From contig JBDRIM010000001.1 in assembly GCA_043816005.1 (NCBI GenBank), forward strand, positions 1 to 27,669: 27,669 nucleotides of DNA, given 5' to 3'. Below are positions 21,001-24,000 of this stretch, piece after piece. The position numbers were made by a program. Each line of letters starts with the position of its first letter. Within the stretch, counting starts at the first letter, position 1. Source of the stretch: Candidatus Micrarchaeota archaeon (GTDB lineage Archaea > Micrarchaeota > Micrarchaeia > Anstonellales > Bilamarchaeaceae).

Positions 21001-24000
21001 GGAACTATCGGCAGAATGAAAGAAATCGCTGATATGAAAGAATTTGACAAACTCCGAAAAGAGATTGACGGCAATTTTGATGATCTTCTAAAAAGGTGAA
21101 AAAATGCAGATGCATTTTTTCTTTATAAAAATAGGAATTTTTATGAGGTGATACTGATGAAAGAATATAAAACAATCACTGAAATCGCAGGTCCGCTTGT
21201 TGTAGTTTCTGACGTTAGTGGCGTTGCATACAACGAAATAGTCGAAATTATGATGCCGAATGGCGAACGAAGAAAAGGGCAGGTACTTGATGTTAGTACA
21301 AATACTGCAGTTGTGCAGGTATTCGGTTCAACAACAGGTATCAGTACGACGCAATCAACAGTCAGGTTCCTCGGAGAAACAATGAGACTTGGTCTTAGTA
21401 GTGATATGCTTGGCCGTATTTTCACTGGTCTTGGTGAACCAAGAGACAAAGGACCAAAAGTCATTCCAAAAGAAAAAGTAGATATTACAGGTCTTCCAAT
21501 CAATCCATATTCACGTGAAATGCCTAATGAATTTATCCAAACTGGTGTATCAACTATTGATGGTATGAATACCTTAGTAAGAGGTCAAAAACTACCTATA
21601 TTCTCCGGTGCAGGTCTTCCGCACAACCAATTAACAGTACAGATAGCAAGACAGGCCAAAGTTAGAGGAACTGGGGAAAAATTTGCAGTTGTTTTTGCTG
21701 CCATAGGTATTACGCATGAGGAAGCATCATTTTTTATGAGAGATTTTGAAAAAACTGGGGCACTTGAAAGTGCAGTTCTTTTCCTTAATCTTGCAGATGA
21801 TCCTTCAGTTGAACGTATTATCACACCACGTCTTGCATTGACAACAGCAGAATACCTAGCATATGAACAAGGGATGCATGTGCTTACTTTGATTACCGAT
21901 ATGACAAACTATTGTGAAGCTTTGCGTGAAATTTCTTCAGCAAGACAGGAAGTTCCAGGTAGACGAGGTTACCCAGGTTACATGTACACTGACCTTTCTA
22001 CAATTTATGAAAGAGCGGGCCGTGTAAGAGGAAGTACCGGTTCGGTTACTCAGATCCCTGTTCTTACAATGCCCGGTGATGATAAAACCCACCCAATCGC
22101 TGACCTTACCGGTTACATTACAGAGGGTCAGATTCTCTTAAGCAGAGATCTTCACAGGAAAAACATTTACCCACCAATTGATCCGCTTCCATCATTATCT
22201 AGATTAATGAACTCTGGTATTGGTGATGGTAAAACAAGGGAGGATCACAAAGGTGTTTCAGATCAGCTTTATGCTGCTTATGCAAATGGCCGAGATTTGA
22301 GAAGCCTTAGTGCAGTTGTAGGTGAAGAAGCATTATCTGCTACAGATAGAAGATTCTTGAGACTAGCTGACGAATTTGAAAAGAAATTTGTCAAACAAGG
22401 TGCTTACGAAAATAGAGATATCGAAACAACATTAGATATTGCATGGGAACTACTTGCAATCTTACCTGAAGAAGAATTGAAGAGAGTTAAGCGAGAACAC
22501 ATTCCAAAGTATCTGAAGAAAAATGGAAATGGGGAAGATAAAGGAGAATAGAAATAACCTCAGTGGGGTTCCGGGGGTTTCCCCCGGGAGAGACCAAAAA
22601 TGGCAGCAACAGACGTAAATCCAACAAGAATGGAGCTCATAAAAACAAAAGAGCGCATTACACTAGCAATCAAAGGACACAAATTGCTCAAGCAAAAAAG
22701 AGATGCACTTATTTTGGAATTTTTTAAAATTTTGAAAAAAGCACAGGATTTACGTGGACAGCTTGCTGAAAGAATGGCAAAAGGATATCATTCTCTTGCT
22801 CTTGCAGAAACTTATCACAACATTCAAGAATTGACTAAAGTTTCTCTTGACCTTAAAAAAGATATTGACATTGATATCGAAGTCAGAAACGTCATGGGCG
22901 TAAAGATACCGAATATTACTGCAAAAATGGAGCACAAACACTTCCTTAGCTTGCCAACTTATTCTGTTGCTGCAACAAGTGCAAAATTAGATGCAGCAGT
23001 AGATGACTTCAATGAAATCTTGCTGATGACTATTAGACTTGCAGAAACCGAAACTGCGATGAAAAGACTTATTGTTGAGATAGAAAAAACCAAAAGAAGA
23101 GTTAATGCACTTGAATTTGTGCTCATTCCAAGGCTTGATGATCAGAAAAAACTAATTACTTTTAGACTTGAAGAAATGGAAAGAGATAGTTTTGTCAGCT
23201 TAAAATCAATTAAAAGAAAATTGGATAAAGAAAAGAAAGCAAAGATGTTAGGAAGCCAGACTTCCTGACTATGTCGAGATCGATGCATCGATCAAGGACG
23301 TGGCTGGTTAGATGTTGCAGTCTAAATAATATAAAAGTGTATCTAAATGGCATAGAATGGAGCTAATTAATCAAAATTTGACATAAAATGATGCTGATAG
23401 ATACTTGTTCAGACATTGATAATAACTAAAGACAGTTTCAGCATAATTAAATCTCCAAAAATCCATTTTTGCTTTGATAAATTCCTTTTCCTTCTCGTCT
23501 TTTTTTCACATTAACAACTTCACCTGCAAAAATAATATGATCTCCGACTTCAATTTCATTTACAATTTTACATTCAATAGTATAAAGTGCCTCTGCAATT
23601 GCAACAGAAGGAATTTCACATTTTTCCTTTGTAACCCCCCATGCTTTGAATTTATCACCATCTCTGCCACTTAATCTACCAAACTTTTCTAATTTATCTT
23701 TCATATCAAAACCAGGAACATTTATAGTGAAAAAACCACTTGATTTCATAAGATCAAAAGTGTATCTTGCTTTGGCTATTGCAACACCAAAAATTGGTGG
23801 TGATGCAGATAAAGGATAAGTCCAAGATGCAGGCATAAAATTATCAATTCCATTATGACTGGCACCAATTAAACAAACACGCATTGGGTAAAGTAATTTG
23901 TAAAAATTTTCCATGGAATTAGAACGAATAGAAAATTTATAGACTTTGGGGTTCGAGGGGGCTACGCCCCCTCAAACAACAAAATTCGGCTAGAACCGCA

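Follow-up and report, generated by a model that had tools for sequence, protein, structure and literature searches.

A 52-nt double hairpin, very probably mobile, that repeats the Shine-Dalgarno core in front of archaeal genes

How did a two-hairpin sequence come to occupy the ribosome-binding site between two A/V-ATPase genes of a Candidatus Micrarchaeota archaeon (assembly GCA_043816005.1, genome G000), and what kind of element is it? The window analysed here is the whole 27,669-nt stretch at the start of contig JBDRIM010000001.1, in which the genes for subunit A (atpA, 19312..21099) and subunit B (atpB, 21157..22551) follow each other on the forward strand; the closest named relatives of AtpB belong to Ca. 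Micrarchaeota, at 90-93% identity. The initial annotation placed a two-hairpin element in front of atpB, and this sequence was found again at 21095..21151 on the same strand. Its description there as an insertion at the ribosome-binding site agrees with the relatives; the length of 50 nt does not hold, as GGTGA recurs at 21095 and 21147, giving a period of 52 nt bounded by AGGTGA repeats. The feature, hereafter the SD-type element, is thus one period plus the repeated core.

All parts of this copy lie on the forward strand. The left core repeat (21093..21099) is the original Shine-Dalgarno (SD) sequence and includes the atpA stop codon TGA (21097-21099), so that atpA terminates in the first GGTGA. 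Hairpin 1 (21098..21121) has 10 bp and a 4-nt loop, with 97.8% of cells paired; by prediction it hides a decoy ATG at 21104. Next come the linker and hairpin 2 (21122..21147), whose 8-bp core (21125-21144) can be lengthened into the right core by bridging a mismatch whose position the family conserves. The right core repeat (21145..21151) is the regenerated SD, and the ATG of atpB begins 5 nt past the second GGTGA. A mini-ORF of 15 codons (21104..21151) runs from the decoy ATG to a TGA in the right core; it may act as a coupling relay and is not conserved across the family. The ends are direct repeats without terminal inverted repeats. The folding z-scores of this copy are −4.6 in the sense and −8.2 in the antisense direction, and were equalled by none of 200 shuffles.

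The element is dispersed. All 14 copies previously listed were present, next to genes whose assignments were borne out by Pfam (V-ATPase B, ArgRS, eIF1A, eIF5A, proteasome alpha, thermosome, ERCC4/XPF) or, for Rpo2, via a metagenome orthologue. The family had been considered nearly confined to G000, and this must be corrected: the covariance model gave 16 matches in G000, 18 in G023, 23 in G049 and 1 in G012, with none in the other 95 of 99 genomes of the taxonomic family. A sequence profile located 13 sites in G000, 17 in G023 and 16 in G049, 46 in total, and none in reversed-genome controls. In a draw of 151 genomes from the phylum, matches occurred only in G000, apart from two single model matches in another family (G154:C21:15220-15275 and G173:C86:129-184), and five metagenome contigs carry additional copies. 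In a tree built from the thermosomes of 30 congeners, G000, G023 and G049 are united as one clade with support of 1.0; in 27 of 27 congeners outside this clade the thermosome gene has no copy of the element. The three species share about 75% protein identity and 44-50% identity at four-fold sites. Viral contigs gave no match to three patterns, and Rfam gave none at the gathering score, with one weak chance match. A literature search, which fell short of most subscription papers, returned nothing relevant on such an element in Micrarchaeota or archaea.

The presence of the element is species-specific. Among 29 other atpA/atpB loci, 28 have a readable junction (one is truncated), and the insert is missing from all 28. 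G023, the closest relative with a readable junction, is shorter than G000 by 49 nt instead of 52 nt because its atpA has one extra codon: the AtpA C-terminus reads LLKMR in G023, and LLKR in G000 and several others. This extra codon could be a scar of element loss. As atpB was not found in the G049 assembly, this copy may reflect either a gain in G000 or a loss in G023. In four low-depth DNA contig sets with patchy cover, none of the joints listed falls at 21095, and the sequencing runs listed as containing the sequence include no RNA set. An empty site had been credited to this insertion alone; many sites turn out to have one. A scripted three-way comparison gave 38 site groups, 22 of them private to one species with both others empty, and about 18 private groups were left after inspection by eye, which removed one mis-grouped case and three with decayed remnants. 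The cleanest private site is G049 C6:480941, where a 52-nt insert lies between otherwise identical flanks. At sites common to species the number of modules differs, and 12 of the 46 sites hold nested, tandem or composite forms longer than one unit. Not every polymorphism is a gain, since some empty sites resemble losses (the extra codon in G023 and the remnants in G049). The atpA/atpB copy is identical at 55 of 56 positions to two G023 copies at unrelated genes, against 44% identity at four-fold synonymous sites, and this one-base difference points to recent exchange or strong constraint. With these empty sites and the matched repeats described below, the earlier view that a non-autonomous element of two hairpins moves into SD cores and regenerates them stands, and we regard its mobility as very probable.

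Compensatory changes had been reported in both hairpins, and an alignment of 37 copies bears this out strongly: 94% of cells are paired, compared with 43-55% in slid controls, and two-sided changes occur at 11 of 21 pairs, a number reached in 0-1 of 500 shuffles. Near the foot of hairpin 2, a mismatch at one fixed position is found in 26 of 37 copies. On the question of which strand folds, G.T mismatches number 19 and A.C mismatches 9 (p 0.09). Such covariation would also be expected of a regulatory cassette, an operator or mRNA leader switch that the host has selected and conserved for its function; many targets are genes of translation, folding and proteolysis, and the atpA/atpB copy is predicted to rebuild the stop-start spacing through its 15-codon ORF. 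Against a cassette, most sites are private to one species and the targets have no common pathway. An internal ATG is found in only 34 of 44 copies with ORFs that are not conserved, which also led us to reject a conserved peptide. An internal ORF that might couple to the downstream gene occurs in 9 of 44 copies, including that at atpA/atpB; these relays fall at 5 of 12 coupled junctions and 4 of 32 others (p 0.087 for enrichment at coupled junctions). Access to the SD would be nearly unchanged: the predicted openness of the rebuilt SD is 0.47 with the insert and 0.40 without it, against a background of 0.38, so occlusion of the SD by the element is not predicted either. The decoy spacer and ATG are predicted to be buried (openness 0.13). 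A host-selected cassette is therefore the least probable of the explanations considered here, and most insertions may be nearly harmless, since the predictions leave the rebuilt SD accessible and hide the decoy start.

The end of the element lies 4-8 nt upstream of a same-strand start codon at 44 of 46 sites; 41 of the 46 lie directly before an ORF of 40 or more codons, and three of the 44 open ORFs under 40 codons. The background for this comparison was non-coding GGTG outside RNA genes and long gaps, with our own gene calls, of which SD sites make up 41% (57% for the 7-nt core). Against it, the 41 of 46 correspond to p 2e-11 for GGTG and 2e-6 for the 7-nt core, and with orthologues collapsed (32 of 37 sites) to p 2e-8 and 1e-4; these p-values overstate the case because kin are not independent. 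One exceptional copy lies in the last codons, at the 3' end of a gene, where the gene sequence resembles the left end of the element, so that the target is likely set by sequence match and survival and not by recognition of SD function. In a separate case, the copy at G049 C3:57790 (L197) and its orthologues precede an 8-codon ORF that ends in Cys, lies about 150 nt upstream of a cysteine-synthase-like gene and has a start conserved in G000 and G023; this ORF is possibly a leader peptide.

All SD-type copies, and all copies of the related start-type family described below, are in the sense orientation. This agrees with a route through RNA, in which the tRNA splicing endonuclease excises the element, which is circularised, reverse-spliced into transcripts and copied to DNA; related hairpin modules also fill apparent tRNA introns, as judged by eye. 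An example is the apparent tRNA gene at G049 C6:554200-554450 (L349), whose introns consist of the same hairpin modules, with similar modules at several other places. However, no reverse transcriptase is present in G023 or G049, and a bulge-helix-bulge cut at equal places in the repeats should need a self-complementary 4-mer, which GGTG does not contain. Moreover, the 46 copies include none deep within a called gene, although coding sequence offers about 20,800 GGTG, which indicates that copies are not spliced out. An RNA route thus appears very improbable.

The repeats themselves bear more directly on the mechanism. GGTGA had been reported on both flanks, which is correct at atpA/atpB; across the family the repeat is not fixed, being 5-7 nt long and site-specific with left and right matched. 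Around GGTG, the left flank carries the same base as the right at −2, −1 and +1 in 30, 36 and 30 of 43 copies, against expected values of 20, 26 and 19 (p<=4e-4). The +1 base forms a pair within hairpin 1; of the six copies with T ahead of both cores, five have a G in the linker. Core-matched strand exchange is suggested because the repeat has 5-7 nt and bases internal to the element match the target, and we consider such an exchange fairly probable. The reading we prefer, and hold to be somewhat better than an even guess, is that the gene-less 52-nt double hairpin moves as an excised circle of single-stranded DNA; an enzyme acting in trans would exchange this circle into a GGTG core of 5-7 nt that matches its own, with a core left on either side. 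In the modelled circle the core faces the linker and is paired with it except for a 2-nt bulge under RNA parameters (more open under DNA parameters), and the linker could thus guide the choice of target. No excised circle or empty allele was observed, which weighs against this reading. Survivors would pile up at ribosome-binding sites because the core is the host SD motif and 52 nt shifts a reading frame. The element is likely a tiny selfish DNA that lands without breaking a gene, because dozens of genes with no relation to each other have it at their ribosome-binding site, because it is polymorphic between species and because the site is repeated on both sides of it.

The SD-type element belongs to a larger hairpin superfamily. 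Family B, with a CATG core and a GACWGTC linker, gave 29, 12 and 17 matches in the three genomes, against 4, 1 and 1 in reversed controls, and is present in 28 of the 99 family genomes. Its members form tandem arrays, lie within genes in frame, and are also found nested inside SD-type copies. The SD-type element aligns with the reverse strand of family B at a score of 30.8 (20.5 for shuffles), and a chimera of the two exists. A third family, C, shares the linker and hairpin 2 and repeats the host ATG with two further bases, often with an SD motif in its loop; 17 of its 21 matches open into ORFs of 45 or more codons. For generic double hairpins the counts are 101, 46 and 89, whereas shuffles give 5-8. 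Within the window, lemA is preceded at 2564..2660 on the reverse strand by a family C (start-codon-type) element in which a family B (CATG-core) unit is nested; the loop of the element's final hairpin contains an SD motif. In G023, start-type elements stand in tandem array at lemA. At a PcrB-family gene, a start-type element in one species corresponds to an SD-type element in the other (G000 C61:33118 and G023 C9:341446). Family B was also seen between two copies of the last ~23 bases of a G017 gene read as rpsG, with ~35 other bases carried (L297:1452-1585), which suggests capture of flanking DNA; in arrays of three or more CATG-joined units with variable loops in G081, of another genus (L290, L317); and as a 54-nt in-frame insert near the start of a phosphoglycerate-mutase-like gene in G103 (L307:738-796).

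Family C bears on a MITE-like alternative, in which a staggered cut makes a true 5-7-nt duplication and template switching then corrects the feet of the hairpins. The direct repeats match site by site, as they would after such a cut, and in the family C copies listed the two bases after ATG match the host without an internal partner, which a staggered cut explains more simply than core-matched exchange. On the other hand, two family C copies keep the element's base at position 6 instead of the host's, terminal inverted repeats are absent, no multi-copy transposase-like paralogues were found, and the linker G opposite T reads as a lineage trait rather than a perfected pair. We consider this alternative unlikely. 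A wider reading, itself rather doubtful, takes the superfamily as self-guiding circles of about 50 nt that have no transposase of their own and retarget through a mutated 5-7-nt core and its pairing linker. Targets would then have shifted from a generic CATG core to start codons with the SD in the loop and to the SD itself, in keeping with the inferred family order of B, C and SD, and the mover would be a host enzyme or an undescribed recombinase. If so, few known replicating DNA units would be smaller, and the translation-initiation regions and tRNA introns of these archaea would be continually rewritten.

The exchange in trans that we prefer calls for an enzyme, and no mobilising enzyme was found in genomes that are 86-88% complete. 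Y1_Tnp occurs in 25 of 99 genomes and is absent from G000, G023 and G012, in line with the earlier statement that this genome has no Y1 TnpA. Genomes with family B have Y1 in 11 of 28 cases and those without it in 14 of 71, a weak association (p 0.07). Of 36 Y1 matches, two could be read, both of them IS200 loci; each lies <700 nt from a superfamily element, and both have terminal hairpins of their own that differ from those of the SD-type element. The G049 C3 IS200 TnpA (L278:16623-17072), on an island absent from G000 and G023, is a candidate enzyme; a double hairpin with a GGTCC linker lies 130 nt upstream of it (L278:16446-16494), with comparable short hairpins to either side. REP and IS200/IS605 hairpins suggest, by analogy, an HUH (Y1) transposase as the mover, which we would name tentatively, at a little short of even confidence. 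RAYT reached the NF047646 cut-off in none of five genomes, and the genes with an element on both sides are housekeeping-like by sequence, with no cognate RAYT among them. The IS110 DEDD recombinase was found in none of G000, G023, G049 and G012 and once in G081; reverse transcriptase occurs only in G000 and G012, and integrase in three of the five genomes. None of RAYT, IS110, reverse transcriptase, integrase and TnpB tracks the carrier genomes. No autonomous parent, with hairpins 1 and 2 around a gene, was seen in three genomes. Integrase and reverse transcriptase lie close together at G000 C41:50792-53813 and G012 C38:26512-31936, perhaps a provirus with a diversity-generating retroelement. 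Three candidates were set aside: the 10 matches of an HUH-motif screen of shared proteins are ordinary enzymes as judged by eye; the hairpins adjacent to a TnpB remnant in G049 fall, also by eye, within an apparent tRNA gene; and an IscB-like ORF on C83 has no hairpin in common with the element.

The lack of a transposase in the richest genomes is what would be expected if no dedicated enzyme existed and the host's own recombination or repair dispersed hairpin single strands by way of micro-homology at SD and start sites, with slippage between repeats resizing them. Further in favour, the downstream spacer at at least six sites equals the element's left arm and not the empty allele, the sole insertion at a gene's 3' end lies in sequence that resembles the element's end over an extended stretch, and modules shuffle freely. 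Invariant stem positions and the fixed mismatch suggest recognition by a protein instead, and the tight unit length also speaks against host repair, as does a distribution sharply limited to one clade apart from strays; we judge host repair quite unlikely. De novo origin by local snap-back was rejected, the left arm being no copy of the local spacer at atpB or at G049 C6:480941. Enzyme-mediated exchange of a circle remains our preferred reading.

The element indicates how a minimal parasite lives in a gene-dense archaeal genome, by aiming at translation signals and rebuilding them, and it represents a convergence with the MIRUs and IS900 of mycobacteria. Because dozens of filled and empty pairs exist, together with sister families that have different cores, two questions become testable: what moves REP- or MIRU-like repeats with no cognate transposase in sight, and how target choice evolves. 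For MIRUs, we know of no mover. Should the enzyme be found, a 52-nt insert that a short core can program could have its uses.

Among known systems, IS900 and IS901 belong to the IS110 family. According to PMC2942039 (citing Doran 1997 and Inglis 2003), they insert between SD and start codon and so share the preference for this region; they are full-length autonomous insertion sequences, whereas the SD-type element is gene-less with 52 nt and its carriers lack an IS110 recombinase. MIRUs insert at start codons (PMC12548453), and homing to ribosome-binding sites, claimed initially as never described, was too strong a claim because mobile DNA aimed at translation starts had already been published in these two cases. 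MIRUs resemble the SD-type element in being short, gene-less, dispersed, seemingly mobile, in one orientation at translation starts and sparing to the downstream gene, and both may carry a coupled mini-ORF. The SD-type element differs in being archaeal, in its two covarying hairpins and in repeating the SD core, where MIRUs use a start/stop overlap, and its mini-ORF is not conserved. REP, BIME and REPIN sequences (PMC3116915) are likewise extragenic multi-copy imperfect palindromes with doublets, mosaics and tandem clusters; in contrast to the inverted doublet of a REPIN in one long hairpin, the SD-type element has two separate hairpins head to tail, a fixed orientation at translation starts and 5-7-nt direct repeats, with no RAYT found. 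PATEs of Haloquadratum (PMC3119063) are similarly archaeal, free of terminal inverted repeats, too short for a transposase and palindromic near both ends. The initial filing as IS200/IS605-PATE-like is unsupported, because PATEs make no target duplication and have palindromes in common with IS605 transposons, whereas the SD-type element has 5-7-nt direct repeats (which identical left and right cleavage motifs could mimic in part) and hairpins unrelated to the ends of the two readable IS200 loci. From MITEs it differs in having direct repeats as ends, without terminal inverted repeats common to a transposon. The SD-type element therefore fails a defining test for each of PATE, REPIN, MITE and IS110, and it behaves as a MIRU would if assembled from hairpins of the REP or PATE kind.
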